Notes under the pieces: generated by a model
The model's input: the letters and a program-made list of their open reading frames with translations, nothing else
Told to the model about the DNA's origin: nothing
Databases searched by the model: none
Shown: positions 3,490-34,035 of the stretch, piece by piece
Numbering within the stretch: the stretch's first letter is position 1
How the letters are laid out: each line of letters begins with the position of its first letter
Position numbers and translations under genes: made by a program
Assembly (NCBI GenBank): GCA_027054335.1
Contig: JALUPA010000539.1
Span: 904-64,903, forward strand
DNA from: Ardenticatenaceae bacterium
GTDB taxonomy: Bacteria; Chloroflexota; Anaerolineae; Promineifilales; Promineifilaceae
Direction: 5' to 3'
DNA: 64,000 nt

Positions 3490-4449
3490 CTAAACCAGCA
3501 GGGATTGAGCCACCGTACCAGCGTATATAGCCAGCAGTAGAACCGTCAAGTAGTAATTGGAAGCCATAAACAGGGCGCGGGCGTGTGAGGCGGATGGGTC
3601 ACGGATAAGCTGCACGTTGCGCCAGAAAAGCATAAAGGAAACCAGCAGCACAGGCGCAAAATAAATCCAGCCCAACGCGGGCAGGGCAACCATCAGTACG
3701 CCAAAAATACAGGTGGGCAGCGTATGGGCCATGACCCACCAGGCAGCGCGATGGGGTGTCGTGTTAACCGGCAGCATAGGTACATCCGAGCGAGAATAAT
3801 CGTCTCGGTACAGCAGAGCCAGGCTCCAGAAATGAAAGGGCGTCCAGAGGAAGAGAATGAGGGCCAGGATGAGGGCGCCGGTTTCATTCCATTGGCCTAT
3901 GGCCGCACTGCCGGTAAGGACAGCCGCGCTGCCGGCCGCACCGCCAATGACGATGTTGAGCAAGGTGCGCGGCTTGAGCCAGATGGTGTAGATGATGGTG
4001 TAGATAAATGCGCCCAGAAGCAGGAAGAAGGCCATCGCCGGGTTAAAAGGGAGGACAACCAGGACGGGAATGAAGATGAGCAGGACGCTGACCACCGGTA
4101 CCCATTTGGGGTTTTTGATGTCGCCGTTGACTAACGGCCGTTTCCGGGTGCGGCGCATGGCTCCATCCGAATGACGCTCCCAATACTGATTGAAGGACGA
4201 CGAACCGGCTGCCGCCATCCCGCCGGTCAGCCAGAGGAGAAGCAGTGTGCCCAAGCCCGGCCAGCCGCCAGCCGCCAGAAATGCGCCGCCGGTGGCGGCC
4301 AACAAGAGCAAAAAAACTACGCGCAATTTGAACAGGACGACAATAAGATTCATGGTTTCCTGCCATTTGCTGCCAGTTCGGGTAGAAACTGCGTCCAGTT
4401 TGCCGGACGTTTCACTTTCCTGCACTTCAGTTGTATTGGTTAAGGACAT
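3490..4449 (-). CDS. ctaB: protoheme IX farnesyltransferase (heme O synthase)
   Basis: UbiA-family polytopic membrane protein with the heme O synthase motif NQYWERHSDGAMRRTRKRPL. Start moved to ATG at 4449, which is preceded by GGAGGAA. Confidence 0.85.
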   Translation of the reverse strand: MSLTNTTEVQESETSGKLDAVSTRTGSKWQETMNLIVVLFKLRVVFLLLLAATGGAFLAAGGWPGLGTLLLLWLTGGMAAAGSSSFNQYWERHSDGAMRRTRKRPLVNGDIKNPKWVPVVSVLLIFIPVLVVLPFNPAMAFFLLLGAFIYTIIYTIWLKPRTLLNIVIGGAAGSAAVLTGSAAIGQWNETGALILALILFLWTPFHFWSLALLYRDDYSRSDVPMLPVNTTPHRAAWWVMAHTLPTCIFGVLMVALPALGWIYFAPVLLVSFMLFWRNVQLIRDPSASHARALFMASNYYLTVLLLAIYAGTVAQSLLV

Positions 4450-4574
4450 GATTCCTCCGGGCTGTCTGTGTGGACACACTCGCTCATTCGTTTACTTGGT
4501 TGGAATTGTAACAAGGTTCACAAAGGGATACAAACGTGATGCGTGATGGCGTGATCCGTGATAGCATCGCAGTG

Positions 4575-5234
4575 ATGACGACGTTACGCAGATATTTGCA
4601 CGAACCGGTGAATACGCTGACTCATATGTTGGGCGCGGCCGTTTCTGTGGCGGGACTGCTGGTTTTGCTTGTCCTAACCTGGGGTGATTGGCCGCGGCTG
4701 GCGACGATGTTGGTTTATGGGTTGAGTATGATTCTTCTCTTCGCCGCCAGTTCCCTGATGCACGGCGTCAAGACCAGCCCGCGCTACCATTTTTGGCTGA
4801 ACCGGCTGGATCACGCCGCCATTTTCCTGCTGATTGCCGGAACGTATACGCCAATTGCCTACAACCTGTTCCCTTCTCCCTGGAATTGGCTGATTTTGGC
4901 AGTGGTGTGGACGGCCGTACTCAGCGGCGTCTTCTACAAAACCACCAGCAAGCAAATTCATGGCTTCCTCAACGTGAGCATCTACGTCATTCTGGGCTGG
5001 GGGGCAGCTTTTCCTCTCTTTCTGGCAACCAGGACGCTAAATCTGATTCCCTGGCAAGGGGTTTTGTGGCTGCTGGCCGGTGGGCTGATTTACTCCATTG
5101 GCTTCCTCATTTACTATCGCCGTTGGCCCGATCCCTGGCCGGACACCTTCGGCCACCACGAAATCTGGCATTTGTTCGTGATGGGCGGCTGCCTGTGTCA
5201 CTATTTGTTTATCTTGTTGTATGTGGCCCGGTAA
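4575..5234 (+). CDS. hemolysin III / PAQR family membrane protein
   Basis: 7-TM protein with LNRLDHAAIFLLIAGTYTP and HHEIWHLFV motifs. The listed start (4536) lies inside a GTGAT tandem repeat, so ATG 4575 is preferred. Confidence 0.8.
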   Translation: MTTLRRYLHEPVNTLTHMLGAAVSVAGLLVLLVLTWGDWPRLATMLVYGLSMILLFAASSLMHGVKTSPRYHFWLNRLDHAAIFLLIAGTYTPIAYNLFPSPWNWLILAVVWTAVLSGVFYKTTSKQIHGFLNVSIYVILGWGAAFPLFLATRTLNLIPWQGVLWLLAGGLIYSIGFLIYYRRWPDPWPDTFGHHEIWHLFVMGGCLCHYLFILLYVAR

Positions 5235-5275
5235 AGGGCAAGGGGGCAAGGCGGCAGTACTTTGCCACTCTGCCC

Positions 5276-7513
5276 CTATTCTTCATACGGCCGTTTCCAC
5301 ACCCAGAACAACGCCAATACAAACAGCACCAGCAGCAAGACCAACGACAAAGAAGAAAGTACAGAGAGGCGGGACGGCGGTTGACCCGGTTCTTTGGCTG
5401 CCGCGTTTGTTTTGGGGAGTGGAGCGAGCGGCGTGGCCTTGCTGTCTGCGTCCGGGGCAGGCATTTCTACGGCCGTATCAGGCGCTTCCAAAAGAAAAGC
5501 AACGATCATTTCCACCTGTTCGGGGGAGAGACGCTCGCCGTAATACTGGGGCATCACGTTAGTCAGGCACGGTCCGTTAGGGCATTCCGGGATAATAAAC
5601 GCATTCGGTTCCAGGATGGATTGGCGCAAGTAGTCGGCTGCCGTCATTCCGGCAATGCGTTCCCCGGCGACGGCCCCAATGTTCGTCAAATCCGGCCCCA
5701 CTTTCCGCGCTTCGCCCAATGCACCGATAACGTGACAGGAGCCGCAGCCCGCATTCAGGATAACTTCCTCTACCGTGTCCCCTTCAATCGGGCGGGGTGT
5801 GGCGGTAGCCACCGGTGCAGCGGATGTAGCTATCGGCGTTGGCGTATCTTCCGGGATGGGGGTGGGGATAGGCGTCAGAGCCAGATTATCTTGTTCCGGC
5901 TGGCTGCCGAATCTGGCCGGCTCGGCGCGCAGGATTGCTTCGCATTGATTGATACCCGGTTCCGGATCAGGCATACACCACCAGGGATCGCCCTTTTTGG
6001 TCTTGAGCAGAGGTACAAACCAGAACACGACATTTTCGCCGGACGCCGGATCGCCGTTAAGCCACTGGCGCGGCGGCTGGTAGGTATCGCCGGGGCCGGT
6101 GACGACGGGGCCATCTCCTTCATCTTCGTTATCTTGCAGGATGAAGAAGTAGGCTTCATCCTGCCCCAGGGGATCGGTTGGCTCCATCTGCCAGATGTAG
6201 CTGGCGTCCCCGTGGCTCGCGGCCACCTTGTTCCCCGTGAGTGAGAGGGTGAGAACGTTGTCTTCAAGCAGATTATTGTCATCCAGCAGCGGCGTTTCCA
6301 CAAAAGGGTACAGTTCCAGTTCCGATTTGGCTTCTATCCATTGGGCGCCATCCCAAACTTGTACCTCATTGTCGTCGGGGCCGGCCAAATCTACATCAAT
6401 GCGCCAGAACGGCCGGTAGATGGATAAATCGTCACAGCCCGGACCGTGCGAGGTGAAGCGGAAATCCAGGCTGCCGTCATCGTAAAACTGGATGATTTGC
6501 TCGTAGCGGTAGCAGCAGATGCAGTTGGGCCAGCGGGTGAATTCGGTGAAAAGCTGGCGCACTTCAAACCCGTCGTCAAATTCGTTGACTTCGGTACCGC
6601 CATATGCCCGGACGGTGGCGTTGAAGCCGATTTCGTCCCGGTAGCCGCCGGGCCAACTGGGATACCAGGCTTCAATCTGGGTGATTTTGGCGCTGGAAAA
6701 GATGAGCGTGTCGTCATAGGTGGCGTCGGTGAAGTTGAGGCCGTCGTGGGCGGTCATTTCCCAGCAAACGTTCCAGCCGTCTTGTTCTGTGCAGCCGTCA
6801 TCATAAGCGCCGCGCTGGGCCACGGGCATCTCTACGTCCAGGTCGGGGCGGCCGCGGGTGTAGAAGGTGCGGGCCACTTTGTCTTGTTCCAGGTTGACGA
6901 AGACGTGGAAGACACGGCCGTCGCCCGCCGGAGAAGCAAACGTTAAATCCACACACCAGTCATCACGGCAGTCATCGTCGGCCAGCCAGCCCGACATGGG
7001 GATCATCACCGGATTAGCTGCGCCAATGTCCCCCAGGATGGCCTGCACCTGAGGGTCGGCCGCGGCAATTTCCAGGGTGCGGGCTAAAATATATTGGCTG
7101 CCGGGCGGACGGGCCAGAGCATCCGTCCATTGCGCCTCTACGGAGTGGGTTTTCAGGTTGACGATAGCGTTGATTGTGCCGCCGTTGGCCATGTCATAGT
7201 AGATGGCGTGGGCGCAGTCCGTCCCGCATTCCCACTGTTGGCTCTCGCTTTGGCCCAGGCGCACCGCTTCCACAAACTGGACATTTTCTTTTTCCTGGAT
7301 AGCGTTGAGTTGGGGGATGGCGGCTGCCAACTGCTCCGGGGAAAAGAGGCGGTCAGCTTCAGCGCCCATACCGAGCATTTGTTTTCCTTTGGCTACGGCG
7401 ATCTGGATACGGCCGTTTTCGGCCGTGCGCAGCCAAAAAATCTGGCCGATGAGTATGACAAGGGCAACTGCAATTAGCCGGATGGTCGCCCGTTGGCGTG
7501 GCGTCGTCTTCAT
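5276..7513 (-). CDS. membrane-anchored protein with large unassigned extracytoplasmic domain and C-terminal monoheme cytochrome c domain
   Basis: Signal-anchor MKTTPRQRATIRLIAVALVILIG, a Cys-rich unassigned region (NCICCYRYEQ), a Pro/Thr linker, a CGSCH heme-binding motif and a C-terminal TM helix. Start set at ATG 7513. Confidence 0.6.
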   Translation of the reverse strand: MKTTPRQRATIRLIAVALVILIGQIFWLRTAENGRIQIAVAKGKQMLGMGAEADRLFSPEQLAAAIPQLNAIQEKENVQFVEAVRLGQSESQQWECGTDCAHAIYYDMANGGTINAIVNLKTHSVEAQWTDALARPPGSQYILARTLEIAAADPQVQAILGDIGAANPVMIPMSGWLADDDCRDDWCVDLTFASPAGDGRVFHVFVNLEQDKVARTFYTRGRPDLDVEMPVAQRGAYDDGCTEQDGWNVCWEMTAHDGLNFTDATYDDTLIFSSAKITQIEAWYPSWPGGYRDEIGFNATVRAYGGTEVNEFDDGFEVRQLFTEFTRWPNCICCYRYEQIIQFYDDGSLDFRFTSHGPGCDDLSIYRPFWRIDVDLAGPDDNEVQVWDGAQWIEAKSELELYPFVETPLLDDNNLLEDNVLTLSLTGNKVAASHGDASYIWQMEPTDPLGQDEAYFFILQDNEDEGDGPVVTGPGDTYQPPRQWLNGDPASGENVVFWFVPLLKTKKGDPWWCMPDPEPGINQCEAILRAEPARFGSQPEQDNLALTPIPTPIPEDTPTPIATSAAPVATATPRPIEGDTVEEVILNAGCGSCHVIGALGEARKVGPDLTNIGAVAGERIAGMTAADYLRQSILEPNAFIIPECPNGPCLTNVMPQYYGERLSPEQVEMIVAFLLEAPDTAVEMPAPDADSKATPLAPLPKTNAAAKEPGQPPSRLSVLSSLSLVLLLVLFVLALFWVWKRPYEE

Positions 7514-25256: not shown

Positions 25257-28145
25257 ATGCCCGCCTTACCGCCCCAACTGTACAATGAACTGGTAGACCT
25301 GTGTGTACCTTGCTTTACCCGCCCGGAAGAGCGCAAACCCCGGCTCAATCCCATCCTCAGCAGTTGGCCCGGCCGTAACCGCCTCAACTGGCGTAGTAAT
25401 CCGCGCACTTTTACTAAACAACTTCTCTATCGCCTGCCCCCGGAACATATTCAGTCGGTTGTGTACCAATTGCTGGCAGACCAATTAGAGGCAGCCCAAA
25501 TAGAGGGATTGTGCAGTTTGATTAACAGCGTCCTTGATCAAACAACGGCTGCTGCCAATGCTGGCCCTTTTGAACTGTATCACCTGGAAATTGCCTCGGA
25601 ACAGGAAGATGTTTACCAGATAGACGAACAGTTTATCCGCCTCACTTTATTACTAGATCAAGGGGAGGAAACGCAGGGCATACGTTTTGTGCCCGATAGT
25701 AAGAAGAAGGATAAATACGACAGTCTGGCTGCCCTTCTGGACGATATTGACGAGCGGGCTATCGTCCTTTTGGGCAAACCGGGCAGCGGCAAAACCACCC
25801 TGCTGCGCCGCCGCCAATGGGAACACGCCTGGGCCGAACTGGAGACCCCCAACGACCAGGTTTCATTTTTTGTTCCCCTCAACAGTTACCGCAGCCCCGG
25901 CCCCGGCCAGCCGCTCCTCGATCCTTACGATTGGCTGGCGGAAGAATGGCATATCCAATATCCTGATCTACTCGATTTTCGCACGCTTTACCAGTCCGGC
26001 CGGATGCTCCTTCTCCTGGACGGGTTAAATGAAATGCCCCACCGGGACAAGGAAGATTACCGGCAGCGCATTGGCCGGTGGCAGACGTTTTGGCAGCGCA
26101 CCCGGCGCTACGGTAATACCCTGATCTTTAGCTGCCGCAGCCTGGATTACAGCGCCAGCCTCAGCGGTACGGCCGCCCCGGTGCGCCAGGTGCGGGTGGA
26201 ACCCCTCACTGAAGAACAGATAGCCCAATTCCTCAGCCGTTATTTGCCGGAGCAAGGTACGGCCGTCTGGGAAGAACTGCGCCGCGACCCACGCCAGGTA
26301 GAATTGTTCAGCACCCCTTTTTTCCTGCGTCTGCTGGTGGGGCACGTTACTGCTAATAACGGCCGTCTCCCGGCCGGGCAGGCAGACCTGCTCACCGGTT
26401 TTGTCCGCCGCGCCTTGCAGCGGGAACTGGTGGAACACCGCCAGCAGCTTTTCACCGCCGGCCTCCTGCTAACCCAAAACGACCGCGATCAGATTATTCA
26501 AAACTGGTGGGACGAGGATGATCCTTGTGACCTGCCTGACAGCGGCCCCCTGCTGCCTCAACTGGAACATCTGGCCTACCAGATGCAGGCCGGCCGGAAA
26601 AGCGAAGAAAGCGGCCAGGTGCGCCTGCCAGAACAAAAAGCATTGGCTTACCTGCAGCCGCCGGAAATGGCTCCAGACATACTTGCGGCCGGTTGTCAAT
26701 TGAACATCCTGGACAAAGACCCGCCCAAGAAGGAAATCACCTATTTCCACCAGTTGATTCAGGAATATTTTGCCGGCCGCATTCTGGCCCGGCAGCCGGA
26801 ACCGGATCGGCTGACCGTGGCCTGGCGCAGCGCTGAAGTCACTCCCTCGCTGGCCGAAGAACTGGCCCGGCTGGAAGTGAGTGACCCTCTGCCGCCGCTG
26901 CCGGCCGGCGGTTGGGAAGAAAGCGCTCTGCTGGCGGCGGCAATGAACAGGGATCAGGAACAATTTGTTACCAACCTGGCCCAGACCAACTTGCCTTTGG
27001 CGGGCCGCTGTGCCGCCCTGCCGGAAGTGGCTGTCTCCCCGGCGCTGGAGGCGCGCCTGCGGGCTGAACTGGCCGCCCGTATGGCTGACCCCCAGGCCGA
27101 CCTGCGCGCCCGCATTGCCGCCGGTGAAGCATTGGGGCCGCTGGGCCACCCCGATTTTGAGCGGCGGGAGGGGCCGTACGGCCCGTACCTGCGGCCGCCG
27201 CTGACCCCCATCCTGGCCGGAACCTACCCTATAGGTGACGATGACGGCCAGTACGAGGATGAAAAACCGGCGCATACTGTAGAAATTGCCGCTTTGGAGA
27301 TGGCCGTGTACCCCCTGACCAACGCCGAGTACGCTCTATTTATGGCGGCCGGCGGCTACGAAGAGGAGCGTTGGTGGCAGACGGAAGCAGCCCGCGCCTG
27401 GCGGCGCGGCGCAGGCAGCAATGAAGGGCAAAAAGCATATTGGCGCGATGTACATGCGCAGTTGAAAGACATGACTGATGAAGCCATACAAAATTTGTCC
27501 AATATGACGCCGGAACAAGTTGAAGGATTCTTGCAAATCAAACATTTTTCTGCGGAAGAGATGGAAAAACAGGTTGAAAAATGGTATCCCACCGGCAAAG
27601 TTCATACACAGCCGGAATATTGGGATGACGGCCGTTTCAACCAACCCTTGCAGCCGGTGGTGGGCATTACCTGGCATGAAGCGCGGGCCTATTGCGCCTG
27701 GCTTTCAGGGCAAACGGGGGAAACATACGATCTGCCCACGGAAGCGGAATGGGAAGCAACGGCGCGGGGCAAAGCGGGCCGCACCTACTCGTGGGGTAAA
27801 AAGTATGACGCCGCCCGCTGTAACACCTTTGAAACCCACATCCGCCATACCACCCCGATAGGTGTTTTCCCCGACGGCCGTACCCCGGAAAAGGTGGCAG
27901 ATATGAGCGGTAACGTGTGGGAATGGACGTCTACCATTTATAAACCCTATCCTTACGCTGTGGACGACGGCCGTGAAGACCCATCAGACCCCGATTCCAG
28001 GCGCGTCTTGCGCGGCGGCTCGTGGGACGACGATCAGCACTACGCCCGCGCCGCTTATCGCTTCCACGGCAATCCAGGCAACCGTTACGGCAATGTCGGT
28101 GTCCGGGTGTGTCGGCGTGCCGTTCCCCATCTCAACGCCCTCTGA
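25257..28145 (+). CDS. DGR variable protein: NACHT/STAND P-loop NTPase with C-terminal FGE-sulfatase (C-type lectin fold) domain
   Basis: Walker A LLGKPGSGKTTLL and Walker B LLLLDGLNEM, with NACHT-like downstream helices. The C-terminal FGE/SUMF1 domain includes YPLTNAEYALFM, VVGITWHEARAYCAWL, GNVWEWT and LRGGSW. The VR occupies the last ~48 codons. Confidence 0.9.
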   Translation: MPALPPQLYNELVDLCVPCFTRPEERKPRLNPILSSWPGRNRLNWRSNPRTFTKQLLYRLPPEHIQSVVYQLLADQLEAAQIEGLCSLINSVLDQTTAAANAGPFELYHLEIASEQEDVYQIDEQFIRLTLLLDQGEETQGIRFVPDSKKKDKYDSLAALLDDIDERAIVLLGKPGSGKTTLLRRRQWEHAWAELETPNDQVSFFVPLNSYRSPGPGQPLLDPYDWLAEEWHIQYPDLLDFRTLYQSGRMLLLLDGLNEMPHRDKEDYRQRIGRWQTFWQRTRRYGNTLIFSCRSLDYSASLSGTAAPVRQVRVEPLTEEQIAQFLSRYLPEQGTAVWEELRRDPRQVELFSTPFFLRLLVGHVTANNGRLPAGQADLLTGFVRRALQRELVEHRQQLFTAGLLLTQNDRDQIIQNWWDEDDPCDLPDSGPLLPQLEHLAYQMQAGRKSEESGQVRLPEQKALAYLQPPEMAPDILAAGCQLNILDKDPPKKEITYFHQLIQEYFAGRILARQPEPDRLTVAWRSAEVTPSLAEELARLEVSDPLPPLPAGGWEESALLAAAMNRDQEQFVTNLAQTNLPLAGRCAALPEVAVSPALEARLRAELAARMADPQADLRARIAAGEALGPLGHPDFERREGPYGPYLRPPLTPILAGTYPIGDDDGQYEDEKPAHTVEIAALEMAVYPLTNAEYALFMAAGGYEEERWWQTEAARAWRRGAGSNEGQKAYWRDVHAQLKDMTDEAIQNLSNMTPEQVEGFLQIKHFSAEEMEKQVEKWYPTGKVHTQPEYWDDGRFNQPLQPVVGITWHEARAYCAWLSGQTGETYDLPTEAEWEATARGKAGRTYSWGKKYDAARCNTFETHIRHTTPIGVFPDGRTPEKVADMSGNVWEWTSTIYKPYPYAVDDGREDPSDPDSRRVLRGGSWDDDQHYARAAYRFHGNPGNRYGNVGVRVCRRAVPHLNAL
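27998..28126 (+). repeat. DGR variable repeat (VR)
   Basis: 129-nt match to 28290-28418 with 12 mismatches, all opposite TR adenines. Weaker homology (IMH-like) extends to about 28139. Confidence 0.9.
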
Positions 28146-28289
28146 TCTCTGGTTGGCGGGCGTAGCGGTAGCGTAGTCCCGCCCCCGCGCGTTAGCGCGG
28201 TCGCTGCAAATTTTCAAATTTTGTACTCTCCTGATTTTCAGTTAAACTTGACTCAGGTACGCATCATAGTACCTGGGGCAACCTGGCAA

Positions 28290-28418
28290 CAGGCGCGTCT
28301 TGCGCGGCGGCTCGTGGAACAACAATCAGCACTACGCCCGCGCCGCTTATCGCAACAACAACAATCCAGACAACCGTAACAACAATGTCGGTGTCCGGGT
28401 GTGTCGGCGTGCCGTTCC
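28290..28418 (+). repeat. DGR template repeat (TR)
   Basis: Non-coding copy of the VR in which the variable codons are AAC/AAT (read as [25 protein letters not shown]). Located 145 nt downstream of the target stop. Confidence 0.9.
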
Positions 28419-28731
28419 ACACCTCAATGCGTTTCCTTTTTCCTGGGGTTTCCGAACTCTCCGGCCTCTCGTCAGGTCGTGTGCTGGATTGGAACCGGGC
28501 GGCTGCCCCACCATAGGCAGACTGCTTCCAGTTTATGCCCGCCGGTTACGGCTTGCGGGATGCGGCGCGGGAAGAGTTGAGATGGCGCAGGTTGGTCCCG
28601 TCTGTACGTAGCTGCGGCGGTATGGAGCGCCGCCGGCGTCAGGCGCATATTCAAACCCGGGCGCGGCCTGGATTCGCTCCCGCCGCGCCCGCTCCATTTA
28701 GCCCCGTGCCTGGCGCTTCTGTCAATTTACT

Positions 28732-29079
28732 CTACAGATGAGCCGTTTGCTTAATCCAGCCGCCCAATAAGCGGCCAATCTCGGCCACCATGCGGCTGAC
28801 GTGTTCAAACTGTCCTACAGACAACCAGCGCCACTGGAACGCCAGGCGCAAATACAGCCGCACCTTGTCCAGGCAGGCGTCTGCCCTTTTCAAATGGCGC
28901 AGCCGTACCTTGTCCTCGTACACTTGCGCCTCCAGAATCGCTTCCTGAAAATCCAGCGTTGCTGCCATCAATCTTTGGGTAACTGTGCTGCGATACAGCT
29001 TAGGAAAACCTTCTGATTTGGGTAAAAGCCAATCCAACAAATCAAATGTGCGCGTAAAAATGATCATTTCTGATGACAT
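28732..29079 (-). CDS. avd: DGR accessory variability determinant (Avd, four-helix-bundle protein)
   Basis: 115 aa. The C-terminal [11 protein letters not shown] parallels Bordetella bAvd EVGRILGSWI, and the helix-bundle heptad pattern is present. GAGGAA lies 5 nt upstream of ATG 29079. The gene is on the opposite strand to TR and RT. Confidence 0.8.
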
Positions 29080-30157
29080 CCTGTTTCCTCATATCACAAA
29101 CTGGGAAAATTTGCTAAAAGCGTATTACAAAGCAGCCCGCGGCAAACGAGGGCGTCAGGCTGCCGCCGCCTTTGAATACAAGCTGGCAGACAACCTTCTC
29201 ATTTTACAAGATGAACTGCGTCAGGGCCGCTATAAACCCGGCGCGTACTGTCACTTCGTCATCCGTGAACCGAAACGCCGCCTGATCAGCGCCGCCCCCT
29301 TCCGGGACAGGGTCGTTCATCATGCCTTGTGCCACGTCATCGAACCGCTCTTTGAAACACGTTTTCACCCCCACAGTTACGCCAACCGGGCAGGAAAGGG
29401 CACACACCGGGCAATTGATCAATTACAAGCATTTGCCCGCCATTACCGCTATGTGCTGCGCCTGGATATTGTGCAGCATTTCCCTTCTTTGGATCACGCT
29501 CTCCTTATGCAGGAACTGTTCCGTGTCATCCGAGATGAACAGGTACGCGGGTTAGTAGACGCCATTTTGCAAAGCGGCGCCGGTGTGTTGGCTGACGAGT
29601 ACCACATGGTATATTTTCCGGGCGACGATCTATTTGCCATTAACCGGCCACGGGGTCTGCCCATCGGCAACCTGACCAGCCAGTTTTGGAGCAACTGTTA
29701 TCTGAATCCGCTGGACTGGTTTGTGACGCGGCAGTTAAGCTGCCCGGCTTTCCTGCGCTATGTGGACGATTTCGCCCTGTTTTCTTCTAATAAACAGCAG
29801 CTCTGGCAGTGGCGGGAACAAATCATCACTTTCCTGGCCGGCCTGCGCCTCACCATTCATGAAAGCAGCGCCCAGGTCATGCCGGTCAATAGTGGCATTC
29901 CCTGGTTGGGTTTTATTGTCTATCCCACATACCGTAAGCTAAAACGGCGCAATATCGTGCAGTTTCAGCGGCGATTGGTACACAATATAACTCTGTACCG
30001 CCGGGGCGACATCTCTTTTGCCGAGTTAGACGCCAGCGTTCAGGGTTGGATTAATCATGTGCGTTATGGGAATACCTGGGGGCTGCGGGAACACATTTTC
30101 CAGCAGCCTGGGAATGCAGTTCCCAGGTTGCTACTGCGGGCAGAAAGGCCATATTAA
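29060..30157 (+). CDS. DGR reverse transcriptase
   Basis: Aligns with Bordetella Brt from the N-terminus ([19 protein letters not shown] versus ITTWENLLDAYRKTSHGKR). It has the DGR-specific motif LPIGNLTSQ and the catalytic YVDD. Start set at ATG 29060. Confidence 0.9.
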
Positions 30158-30198
30158 CTAATCTGCTGAGCATCCCGCCCCAACCACGGATGATGATC

Positions 30199-30351
30199 GT
30201 AGGGGCGGGACGGCGCGGTGCGGTCTTGGGCAAACAAAACGATGTTGTTCCGCGCCGTCTCGCCCGGTGGCGGCCGTGTGTGGGGCGAGACAGGCGGGAG
30301 AGAAGGTGTTGGTGAATGGTAAAGGTGTTTTCCCGCCTGTCCCGCCCCTAC
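30199..30351 (+). repeat. 153-bp GTAG...CTAC structured element (REPIN-like), copy 1
   Basis: Termini are GTAGGGGCGGGAC / GTCCCGCCCCTAC. Three nested internal hairpins (GGACGGCGCGG/CCGCGCCGTC, GTCTCGCCC/GGGCGAGAC, CAGGCGGGA/TCCCGCCTG). Near-identical copy at 30918-31071. Confidence 0.9.
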
Positions 30352-30378
30352 TGTGAATTGTGTATGGTGGATAATCGA

Positions 30379-30921
30379 ATGAATAAATATGATCCGAATA
30401 AACATCGGCATTCCATTCGACTGCGCGGGTGGGATTACCGGTCGCCCGGCCTGTATTTTGTGACAATTTGTACCCATGAACGACAAAACCTGTTTGATAA
30501 CCTGGATTTCCGAGACATTGCGATTTATGCTTTAGGCCGCATTCCCCAACAAAAACATGCCCGGCATGTGCTGGTAGACGAATCGGTGGTGATGCCTAAC
30601 CATGCCCATGCTATTTTGGCGTTTACTGGTTATCCGGAGCAGGCGGATATGACTCGCACCCGCGGAAATTTTGAGAATGCGTTGGCAGGATCATTGGGTG
30701 TGGTTGTGGGGCGGTATAAAACGGCCGTAACTACCCGTATCAACAAATTACGACACAGCAAAGGGGCAAAGGTGTGGCAGCGCGGTTATTATGAACGTAT
30801 CATTCGCAATGAACGAGAATTGCAGGCCACGCAACAATATATTATCAACAATCCGGCACGTTGGGCCGAAGATCGGGATAACCTGGGTATTCTCCTCGCC
30901 AAAATGACATACCATCCGTAG
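30379..30921 (+). CDS. REP-associated tyrosine transposase (RAYT, IS200/IS605 Y1 family)
   Basis: HUH motif (VMPNHAHAIL) and catalytic-Tyr helix (WQRGYYERIIRNERELQATQQYIINNPARW). Start at ATG 30379, because the listed 30316 start lies inside the flanking repeat. The stop TAG is part of the GTAG of the downstream element. Confidence 0.85.
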   Translation: MNKYDPNKHRHSIRLRGWDYRSPGLYFVTICTHERQNLFDNLDFRDIAIYALGRIPQQKHARHVLVDESVVMPNHAHAILAFTGYPEQADMTRTRGNFENALAGSLGVVVGRYKTAVTTRINKLRHSKGAKVWQRGYYERIIRNERELQATQQYIINNPARWAEDRDNLGILLAKMTYHP

Positions 30922-31071
30922 GGGCGGGACGGCGCGGTGCGGTCTTGGCGGAAACAAAACGATGTTGTTCCGCGCCGTCTCGCCCGGTGGCGGCCGTGTG
31001 TGGGGCGAGACAGGCGGGAGAGAAGGTGCTGGTGAATGGTAAAGGTGTTTTCCCGCCTGTCCCGCCCCTAC
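30918..31071 (+). repeat. 154-bp GTAG...CTAC structured element (REPIN-like), copy 2
   Basis: Direct repeat of 30199-30351. By visual alignment the two copies differ by only a 1-nt indel and a few substitutions. Confidence 0.9.
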
Positions 31072-31236
31072 GACAATGGGGGCAAATGGGCAAACCAAAG
31101 TTGACTTCCCTGGCTTCTTTTGCTACGATCTTCGGCATGAAGACACATTTGGTTATTCAAGCCGCAGCCGCCGCCCGGACAAATCGTCTGGCGTGTGGGC
31201 TTGTCTGACTGTTTCCAGCATAAACACAGCATTTAG

Positions 31237-31270
31237 CCGCCAGATTGAGTACCCAGTCTGGCGGTTTTTT
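31237..31270 (+). terminator. intrinsic terminator
   Basis: CCGCCAGA-(12 nt)-TCTGGCGG followed by TTTTTTG. Lies downstream of the RAYT unit and upstream of alaS. Confidence 0.6.
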
Positions 31271-31344
31271 GTTGCTGGGGTACAATTTCAGGATCAAGGT
31301 GACAGGCAGTTGAGAAGTGCCTGTCACCTAAAAATGGAGTGATA

Positions 31345-34035
<2,691 letters not shown>

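Follow-up and report, generated by a model that had tools for sequence, protein, structure and literature searches.

A chromosomal DGR with a NACHT/lectin-fold target gene and two natural variable-repeat alleles in a Chloroflexota bacterium

The window, the whole stretch of 64,000 nucleotides analyzed here, originates from an uncultured member of the Chloroflexota, and its ORF list and translations place a gene for a protein of 962 amino acids on the forward strand at positions 25257–28145. Residues 167–332 of this protein (nt 25755–26252) form a NACHT NTPase domain (Pfam NACHT, 4.9e-15), and residues 652–952 (nt 27210–28112) correspond to an FGE-sulfatase, or C-type-lectin-fold, domain (Pfam FGE-sulfatase, 2.5e-45). 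The 166 N-terminal residues and the middle region yielded no confident Pfam domain, with a faint match to EAD8 at E = 0.098. In the PDB, its relatives have the FGE fold, among them TvpA (2Y3C, E = 2e-6), the variable protein of a diversity-generating retroelement (DGR), and in a PADLOC search the protein did not match any defence family.

The 3' end of this target gene contains, in frame, the core of a variable repeat (VR, 27998–28126) that makes up codons 915–957 of the 962-codon ORF. In a pairwise alignment it matches without gaps, at an offset of 292, the core of a template repeat (TR) located on the same strand at 28290–28418; no additional VR-like copies were found in the 64-kb window. 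The TR core comprises 29 adenines in 129 nt, and all 12 mismatches between the two cores fall on these adenines, as 8 A>G, 3 A>T and 1 A>C, for which the hypergeometric probability is P = 2e-9. In the frame of ORF 25257–28145 the changed adenines occupy codon positions 1 or 2, within eight AAC or AAT codons and one GAC. A previous, sequence-only reading of the locus had claimed that the core mismatches were confined to TR adenines in first or second codon positions and had called for this alignment, which fully bears out the claim, as none of the 12 core substitutions affects a C, G or T of TR.

Beyond the core (...GCCGTTCC) the homology runs on to 28138 in VR and 28430 in TR, with three further differences at 28127/28419 (C in VR, A in TR), 28130/28422 (T, C) and 28136/28428 (C, T). 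The same reading had described about 12 nt of homology past the GC-rich end with non-adenine mismatches. The extension and its differences were found as described, but the term non-adenine does not hold for 28127/28419, where the TR base is an adenine, yet a fixed one. We considered this pair as a thirteenth adenine mutation and rejected it, given that all 29 related loci and all 18 second VRs show the A/C combination. As TR-A and VR-C recur at the same place in all related loci, they represent a fixed difference between IMH* and IMH and not a product of mutagenesis.

Downstream of TR, on the strand opposite to both TR and the reverse transcriptase gene, lies avd (accessory variability determinant, 28732–29079), encoding 115 amino acids. 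Its product was identified by Pfam bAvd (PF22296, 3e-16) and by NCBIfam DivGenRetAVD (NF033474) at 81.2 bits versus an equivalog cutoff of 80, and in the PDB it matches Avd in entries 4DWL and 8UB7. Avd accompanies most DGRs, although not all of them. The DGR reverse transcriptase (RT; Pfam RVT_1) of 365 residues is encoded on the forward strand from an ATG at 29060 to position 30157, so that the starts of avd and RT overlap by 20 nt; with the second methionine of avd (29067) as its start, the overlap would be 8 nt. RT contains the motifs IGNLTSQ, an instance of the [I/L/V]GxxxSQ signature of DGR-type RTs, and YVDD, and retains the equivalents of R74 and I181 of the Bordetella phage enzyme bRT, which is also its best PDB match (8UB7_A, 1e-49 over residues 8–351). 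Matches to group II intron RTs are weaker than this (1.3e-19), and all non-DGR RT models in NCBIfam score below their cutoffs. The open reading frames are intact throughout the element. Further downstream of RT, the window holds a REP-associated transposase and alaS.

A survey of GTDB genomes returned 231 relatives of this RT, from which 80 loci were kept, and 29 related loci were used to analyze covariation in the RNA and the IMH. Relatives with 60–67% identity were found in Accumulibacter, Competibacteraceae and Anaerolineae. Adenine-biased TR/VR pairs are present in 46 of the 80 kept loci, and avd lies on the opposite strand in every related locus with an Avd match (76/76). Many relatives have two targets, and in many of the more distant ones a convergent second target is located downstream of RT.

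As a simple consensus scan did not return any full consensus sigma-70 site, we infer the promoter of the TR RNA from a -10-like box, TAAACT, at 28243–28248 on the forward strand, for which the alignments give a clade consensus of TATAAT with A2 and T6 conserved to at least 90%. The upstream strand of a predicted stop duplex, the analogue of the 'cPRT Stop', follows at 28274–28285, and its partner is found beyond TR in a structured spacer (Sp) RNA at 28431–28692 that was defined by the alignment fold and by pair counts. Along the same strand, Sp comprises helix H1 (28538–28545/28552–28559), the primer strand (28577–28584) with the adjoining G28585, C28586 and G28587, the stop strand (28588–28599), helix H2 (28600–28609/28636–28644), a conserved A-rich segment CAUAnnCAAA (alternatively CAUAnAAAA), and helix H3 (28659–28667/28682–28690).

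Across the 29 related loci, 90.3% of the cells for the 47 pairs of this fold are paired, versus 73.2% in shuffles and 40–46% with slid partners. Compensatory changes were detected in 37 of the 47 pairs, and none of 500 shuffles performed as well. The stop duplex (helices 3 and 4) reaches 95–97% of cells paired with compensatory changes in 5 pairs, and for helices 3–5, which constitute the stop and template:primer duplexes, the values are 88.8–97.5% and 13 of 17 pairs; H2 is paired in 97.7% of cells. A candidate 5' hairpin at 28256–28273 (helix 1) was discarded, being unsupported in the alignment with 40.8% of cells paired. The window sequence itself keeps the RNA pairings intact. Judged by this covariation, the data support an RNA fold around TR that agrees with the Bordetella phage model, with a template:primer duplex and a stop duplex. 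A search of Rfam yielded no match to the spacer at E ≤ 1, and nothing beyond sub-threshold, microRNA-like hits in the repeat that flanks the transposase.

The VR-specific end, IMH (28127–28138), follows an A-free, GC/T-rich run of 33 nt (28094–28126), and its TR-specific counterpart IMH* spans 28419–28430, all on the forward strand. Within IMH*, A28419 faces the invariant Sp nucleotide G28585, and the template strand of the template:primer duplex consists of 28420–28427. In VR, CCATCTCAAC (28127–28136) is a perfect Watson–Crick complement of Sp 28576–28585, such that the Sp primer segment forms 10 of 10 pairs with the IMH of VR but 8 of 10, with two mismatches, with the IMH* of TR. The same advantage of IMH is seen in the 18 second VRs and in BPP-1 (10 versus 7 pairs), and the triple of TR-A, VR-C and Sp-G is found in 29 of 29 loci. 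Pairing of the VR IMH with the Sp of its own locus averages 4.38 of 5 versus 3.02 with the Sp of other loci, a value not attained in any of 5000 permutations. The suggestion that these ends form an IMH/IMH* directionality pair holds up: in this clade the start of IMH both covaries with and complements the RNA primer downstream of TR.

For BPP-1, directionality has already been attributed in print to a closer complementarity of the RNA primer to IMH than to IMH* (Naorem et al. 2017, PMC5703328), and we therefore do not regard the complementarity as a new idea. We see an even chance that a clade-wide three-way rule separates donor from recipient, whereby the invariant G that ends the primer segment of Sp mismatches the A of TR and pairs with the C of VR, as is the case in 47 of 47 VRs, and the next 4–9 bases of IMH track Sp locus by locus. 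If the pairing is functional, the proposal of Naorem et al. (2017) would extend from one phage to cellular DGRs, and sequence alone would suffice to predict IMH, the site of priming and how far information is transferred.

Further VR alleles were sought through exact-protein look-ups, as a metagenome scan with the TR pattern in which all adenines were replaced by N had produced no match. The exact RT protein was found on 4 public contigs. The full target protein had no exact match, and Avd and a spurious antisense ORF, queried in the same way, led again only to the contigs of the RT look-up, or to a short fragment devoid of VR. Over 6022 nt, assembly L083 (GCA_027049765.1) agrees with the window except for 14 substitutions and a 10-N assembly gap. 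All 14 substitutions fall inside VR, between 28041 and 28092, and define an allele B as opposed to allele A of the window; allele A recurs in assembly L082, and allele B in L084. Compared to TR, allele B differs at adenines in 13 of 14 cases, the exception being 28041 (T>G). The TR sequences of the window, L082 and L083 are identical. Five A>G changes, at 28026, 28029, 28032, 28068 and 28069, are common to alleles A and B, so that the two did not arise by fully independent rewriting. In L082 the scaffold is broken at 28040, directly before the first allele-discriminating site, and has a 100-N gap in VR; in L084, VR is collapsed onto TR with a loss of 292 nt, and Logan contigs stop within TR.

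The sequence-only reading had held that the element has been active and had proposed a comparison of VR alleles. With two alleles now recovered from public contigs, TR unchanged and a background of about 6 kb otherwise identical, that view is reinforced, and the allele sequences indicate activity that is recent.

These data have to be weighed against other origins of the repeats and of their variation. VR and TR might have arisen by the plain duplication of part of a gene, followed by divergence through point mutations or through recombination of paralogues; the adenine bias would then be a matter of chance or composition. It speaks for such an origin that TR still reads in frame as the end of an FGE-sulfatase domain (Pfam, ORF 28300–28611, E = 3.5e-4). 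Chance would nevertheless have to place 12 of 12 mismatches on adenines (P = 2e-9) and then repeat the bias in a second allele. In addition, RT and Avd adjoin the repeats, no other paralogous copy is present in the window, and the layout recurs in dozens of loci, so that a simple duplication is effectively refuted already and its probability is negligible. The variation between contigs might instead be spurious, introduced during sequencing or assembly because of the VR/TR repeat, and faults at this repeat are indeed real, as evidenced by the collapse in L084, the 100-N gap in L082 and the Logan contigs ending in TR. Allele B, however, is not a chimera of VR and TR, for it contains bases found in neither the VR nor the TR of the window (C at 28057, T at 28071, GC at 28080–28081); it is present in two assemblies, L083 and L084, as is allele A in the window and L082, and we consider an artefact extremely unlikely.

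The element might also be a fossil, once active but now inert, with old differences between VR and TR. The recovery of two alleles only, with five A>G changes in common, is in line with such a history, but the ORFs are all intact, the RNA pairings are preserved in the window, and all 14 substitutions in about 6 kb fall in VR, with none in TR or elsewhere. Moreover, the assembly breaks coincide exactly with the variable sites. We rate an inert element as very unlikely. The locus is almost certainly a complete chromosomal DGR, in which the target gene with VR is followed by TR, by avd on the reverse strand and by RT, and which would work by steps modelled on those of BPP-1. The adenine-only pattern, the protein components, the RNA pairings by covariation and the two natural VR alleles are direct observations in support of this assignment.

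For the individual steps we draw on the analogy to BPP-1, as laid out in published models (PMC5703328, PMC6182149, bioRxiv 10.1101/2023.10.23.563531), and on covariation in the related loci. The BPP-1 system has been reconstituted in E. coli (PMC12875486). Transcription would start at the -10-like box about 45 nt upstream of TR, yielding an RNA that spans TR and about 260 nt of structured Sp. Pairing of 28274–28285 with Sp 28588–28599 would form the stop duplex and place the 5' boundary of the cDNA 4 nt ahead of the start of VR/TR homology, while the 3' end of TR (28420–28427) would pair with Sp 28577–28584 as the template:primer duplex. RT–Avd would then use the Sp nucleotide that terminates this duplex, either G28584 or the invariant G28585, to prime the cDNA, and copy TR with random bases put in opposite adenines. 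The cDNA, still attached to the Sp RNA, would locate VR via the complementarity of the Sp primer to IMH, because the primer fits the VR IMH at all ten positions and mismatches TR IMH* at two, and VR would be replaced by cDNA up to but excluding 28127.

We infer that rewriting affects the lectin-fold surface at the C-terminus of a NACHT (STAND) NTPase, where it reaches 11 AAY codons and further codons that contain adenines. Family knowledge of proteins such as TvpA and Mtd suggests that the variable residues form a binding surface, and the most likely consequence of rewriting VR would be to retune what the NACHT sensor binds.

Tens of thousands of DGRs are known, and the present element is a standard one, as NACHT/lectin-fold targets and the order TR-(avd)-RT have been described before. 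It does provide a clean natural example of two VR alleles in an identical background, which show diversification in the environment. The Bordetella phage mechanism moreover includes two elements for which the evidence comes chiefly from a single model system, namely an RNA architecture for priming in cis and the proposed reading of IMH by pairing with a cDNA-linked RNA primer, and for both of them the compensatory changes in the relatives offer comparative support.

The prototype of these elements is the DGR of Bordetella phage BPP-1 (mtd-VR/avd/TR/brt). In both systems TR and VR differ specifically at adenines, VR forms the 3' end of a target gene encoding a lectin fold, IMH/IMH* come after a GC-rich run, and a GC stem-loop lies beyond VR; both also have Avd, and their RTs are homologous over the full length (1e-49). 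The nested RNA is also alike, with the stop duplex enclosing the template:primer duplex and two linker nucleotides after the primer strand, as is the superior pairing of IMH over IMH* with the Sp primer (10 versus 7 pairs in BPP-1, 10 versus 8 in the window). In contrast to the phage system, the element resides in a Chloroflexota chromosome, its Sp is about 260–300 nt long instead of 140 nt, and its FGE-sulfatase-type lectin fold is fused to a NACHT NTPase and is not part of a tail fibre. Here avd, encoded opposite to TR and RT, separates Sp from RT, and the upstream strand of the stop duplex is consequently non-coding, whereas in BPP-1 it is the 3' end of avd. A further distinction concerns the template base next to the duplex, an invariant A facing an invariant G, with C in every VR; in BPP-1 the corresponding pair is G117/G57, and TR and VR are the same. 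The priming nucleotide may accordingly differ from that of BPP-1, being an unpaired G instead of a paired A.

Cellular DGRs of clade 5 (5D type) diversify proteins that combine STAND/NACHT and C-type-lectin parts and are termed 'putative antigen sensors' (Dore et al. 2024, PMC10907252). The present target resembles them in its central NACHT domain, its single C-terminal lectin-fold VR and an N-terminal extension without a known domain, and relatives of the RT come from filamentous Chloroflexota and from Accumulibacter, both of which that study names as hosts. Note that this likeness is based on target architecture and RT-relative identity. Two targets per locus are common in clade 5D, and the single target of the window is compatible with that wording. 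TR upstream, avd in reverse and RT downstream correspond exactly to architecture B3, TR-(avd)-RT, of Wu et al. (2018, PMC5758913), whose accessible portion contains no mention of the conserved 20-nt overlap of divergent avd and RT start codons. The FGE-sulfatase-type fold with a C-terminal VR is also found in the TvpA DGR of Treponema denticola (PDB 2Y3C, E = 2e-6), but TvpA is a lipoprotein without an NTPase domain, and according to Wu et al. (2018) the Treponema DGR clade belongs to architecture C, with an HRDC accessory gene.

The stem-loop downstream of VR was located by folding at 28185–28200 on the forward strand. This GC hairpin, CCGCGC-GTTA-GCGCGG, begins 46 nt past the end of homology and is followed by a T-rich stretch, unlike the stem-loop of BPP-1, which is immediately adjacent. 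GC-rich inverted repeats downstream of IMH are present in about a third of DGRs. Hairpins with perfect stems of 5 bp or more and loops of 3–6 nt, GC-rich in most cases, are present at a distance of 17–102 nt in 28 of the 29 related loci, and the one in the window could act as the stem-loop of a DGR target site, as the target gene's terminator, or in both roles.

A repeat search of the window returned a single direct repeat, of 141 nt and 89% identity, pairing the upstream variable repeat (VR, 27998-28138) with the downstream template repeat (TR, 28290-28430); no other VR-like copy was found in the window on either strand. In an ungapped alignment at an offset of 292, the 129-nt core (27998-28126 versus 28290-28418) contains 12 mismatches, every one an adenine in TR that VR replaces by G (eight sites), T (three) or C (one). 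With 29 A in the 129 nt of the TR core, the probability that 12 of 12 random mismatches fall on A is 2e-9. Codon position 1 or 2 is affected throughout: read in the frame of ORF 25257-28145, the changed adenines belong to eight AAC/AAT codons and one GAC codon. The sequence-only reading had placed all core differences on adenines in codons of this kind and is borne out on both counts; the VR/TR alignment that it proposed as a check showed no substitution at a TR C, G or T within the window core. Three more TR/VR differences follow 3' of ...GCCGTTCC, at 28419/28127 (A/C), 28422/28130 (C/T) and 28428/28136 (T/C), where the homology stops. The mismatches past this GC-rich end had been described as non-adenine, which holds for the latter two, while the one at 28419/28127 sits on a TR adenine.

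Beyond the original finding, most is to be gained from a natural pair of VR alleles and from the covariation that supports the RNA mechanism. Public copies were sought by exact look-up of the reverse transcriptase (RT) sequence, which gave four contigs. One of these, L083 (GCA_027049765.1, JALTTD010000979.1), aligns to window 27136-33157 with a 10-N gap and 14 substitutions as the sole differences, and all 14 lie inside VR at 28041-28092. Its TR is identical to that of the window, and its VR (allele B; the window VR is allele A) differs from TR at 14 positions, 13 of them adenines and one a T>G at 28041. As the two alleles stand in a background of about 6 kb without any other substitution, they show that VR was rewritten very recently relative to ordinary mutation, and the earlier statement that the element has been active is strengthened. 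Note that the T>G at the equivalent of 28041 (L083 position 906, also in L084) affects a TR thymine, changes Tyr to Asp, and is the sole non-adenine change among the 26 VR/TR core differences of both alleles. Five A>G changes, at 28026-28032 and 28068-28069, are common to both alleles and yield Asp-Asp-Asp and Gly, with 14 other sites differing. The alleles are therefore not wholly independent, and the common changes could reflect selection at those positions or partial conversion events.

The public contig L082 carries allele A, but its left contig stops at 28040, one base ahead of the first allele-distinguishing site, and is followed by 100 N, as would be expected from the effect of a mixed VR population on the assembly graph. 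In a second assembly, L084 (ERZ23495177 scaffold_20796) follows allele B as far as 28081 and then switches into TR with a loss of 292 nt, so that positions 864-1001 join the 5' part of VR to the 3' part of TR. This junction is probably a collapse of the repeat during assembly, and a real VR-TR recombination deletion is the conceivable, less favored origin.

The proposal that the VR-specific end (IMH, 28127-28138) and the TR-specific end (IMH*, 28419-28430) form a directionality pair was supported by comparison with the spacer RNA (Sp) 3' of TR. Over the first five IMH positions, VR forms on average 4.38 Watson-Crick pairs with the Sp primer from the same locus, compared to 3.02 with Sp of other loci and 3.31 for TR with its own Sp primer; in 5000 permutations the first of these means was never reached. 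Pairing with Sp GUUGAGAUGG in the window covers 10 of 10 positions for VR CCATCTCAAC and 8 of 10 for TR ACACCTCAAT. Likewise, in the prototype element of Bordetella phage BPP-1 (L091) VR makes 10 contiguous pairs with Sp and TR seven, and four of the five IMH/IMH* differences add Sp pairs. The idea is not new, since Naorem et al. noted the IMH-Sp relationship in BPP-1 and offered it as the basis of directionality (PMC5703328), but our comparative data from a distant cellular clade appear to lend it additional support. Directly beside the template:primer duplex, TR has A, VR has C and Sp has G in 29/29 loci with an upstream VR, and the C recurs in 18/18 second VRs. Because of this constancy the A/C difference at 28419/28127 was counted as IMH*/IMH, and its reading as a thirteenth adenine mutation was rejected. 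A perfect hairpin lies 3' of VR in 28/29 loci and is GC-rich in most of them. The one in the window (CCGCGC-GTTA-GCGCGG, 28185-28200) may serve as stem-loop of the target site, as terminator of the target gene, or in both roles.

A structure of 47 pairs, derived from covariation scans, was tested on an alignment (A2) of 30 loci that begins 75 nt before TR and extends to the stop codon of avd. Standard pairs occupied 90.3% of cells, versus 73.2% in shuffles and 40-46% with partners slid by 1-3 columns; compensatory changes were found in 37 of the 47 pairs, and 0/500 shuffles matched the observed values. The structure comprises three local spacer helices (H1 to H3) and a long-range duplex of TR-upstream sequence with Sp (28275-79 with 28595-99, 28282-85 with 28588-91; 95-97% of cells paired), which encloses a template:primer duplex of TR 28420-27 with Sp 28577-84 (8/8 pairs covarying, 88.8% of cells paired). 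This nested arrangement matches the Bordetella phage RNA. There the partner of TR 117-129 is Sp 47-56, with A56 as the priming nucleotide; after the two linker nucleotides G57 and C58 comes Sp 59-70, whose pairing with TR-upstream sequence forms the 'cPRT Stop' (PMC6182149; bioRxiv 10.1101/2023.10.23.563531). By analogy, cDNA would be primed from Sp G28584 or G28585 and is predicted to end right before the stop duplex, 4 nt upstream of the start of VR/TR homology at 28290. A further, apparently conserved spacer hairpin at 28490-28530 (CUGCC-CCACCAUA-GGCAG, loop CCACCAUA), outside the formal pair count, shows seemingly compensatory changes such as ACUC/GAGU in the relative L010. About 45 nt upstream of TR a -10-like hexamer is conserved (consensus TATAAT, A2 and T6 at least 90%; TAAACT at 28243-48 in the window), which suggests a dedicated promoter for the TR RNA; a simple promoter scan did not find a full site.

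The target gene (ORF 25257-28145, plus strand, 962 codons, VR at codons 915-957) encodes a NACHT NTPase domain (residues 167-332, Pfam 4.9e-15) and a C-terminal FGE-sulfatase domain (652-952, 2.5e-45) of the C-type-lectin-like fold family, with a PDB match to the variable protein TvpA (2Y3C, E = 2e-6). The RT (29060-30157, plus strand, RVT_1) starts 630 nt downstream of TR and contains IGNLTSQ and YVDD motifs. Its best solved relative is bRT of the Bordetella phage element (8UB7_A, E = 1e-49, residues 8-351 aligned), ahead of a group II intron RT (1.3e-19). In the structure of bRT, R74 and I181 touch the incoming nucleotide and the template base, and the residues aligned to these two are conserved. 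Between TR and RT lies avd on the minus strand (28732-29079; NCBIfam DivGenRetAVD 81.2 bits, cutoff 80; Pfam bAvd 3e-16). As the flanking genes are housekeeping genes (an ABC transporter upstream, alaS downstream), we regard the diversity-generating retroelement (DGR) as chromosomal. The element, from an uncultured member of the Chloroflexota, is a DGR of architecture B3 whose target combines NACHT and lectin-fold domains; the order TR-(avd)-RT is that described as B3 by Wu et al. (PMC5758913), and the element probably belongs to clade 5.

Among GTDB contigs, at one genome per species, 231 RT relatives were found, mainly in Chloroflexota (best 84% identical) and also in Gammaproteobacteria, including Accumulibacter and Competibacteraceae, and Acidobacteriota. 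Of the 80 loci kept, 46 had adenine-biased TR/VR pairs. As a rule, target(VR), TR, avd and RT follow one another, often with a convergent second target 3' of RT, and avd lay opposite the RT strand in all 76 loci matched by the window Avd as query. In one relative, the Chloroflexia MAG L004, the TR-avd unit is doubled within 3495-6020 (TRs 3786-3917 and 5248-5368, Avd matches 4565-4227 and 6020-5682), and one VR is matched by both TRs. Two targets per locus are often present in the clade 5D DGRs described from filamentous and aggregate-forming bacteria, with chloroflexi and Accumulibacter among the named hosts, and these targets carry a central STAND/NACHT NTPase and a single C-terminal lectin-fold domain (PMC10907252).

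With 11 AAY codons and other adenine-containing codons open to rewriting, we calculate more than 10^12 possible target sequences at 15 amino acids per AAY codon. By analogy to solved DGR variable proteins, the variable residues would form a ligand-binding surface. The N-terminus is uncharacterised, with a faint EAD8 match (E = 0.098); together with the NACHT domain it would fit the reading of such targets as a 'putative antigen sensor' (PMC10907252), and none of the PADLOC defence families matches the protein. Two long minus-strand ORFs inside the target gene (26469-27275 and 27336-27677), annotated as genes on the public L082 scaffold, matched no family and are most likely spurious; those calls apparently arose since the N-gap in VR split the real ORF.

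The divergent avd and RT genes overlap by 20 nt at their start codons (29060-29079), as in at least 20 related loci. The RT ATG lies within the palindrome ATGATCAT, whose opposite strand contains the codon for the second Met of Avd. Owing to this overlap, either the promoter of each gene is situated within its neighbour, or translation of RT relies on TR-RNA read-through antisense to avd. Downstream of RT, a REP-associated tyrosine transposase-like ORF (30316-30921; NCBIfam NF047646, 75.5 bits, slightly below the cutoff of 80) is bordered by two direct repeats of 154/155 nt (30198-30351 and 30917-31071, 98% identical), which are strongly self-complementary (MFE -86.6 kcal/mol) and the only copies in the window. 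The whole unit (30198-31071) occupies the spot of the convergent second target in many more distant DGR relatives.
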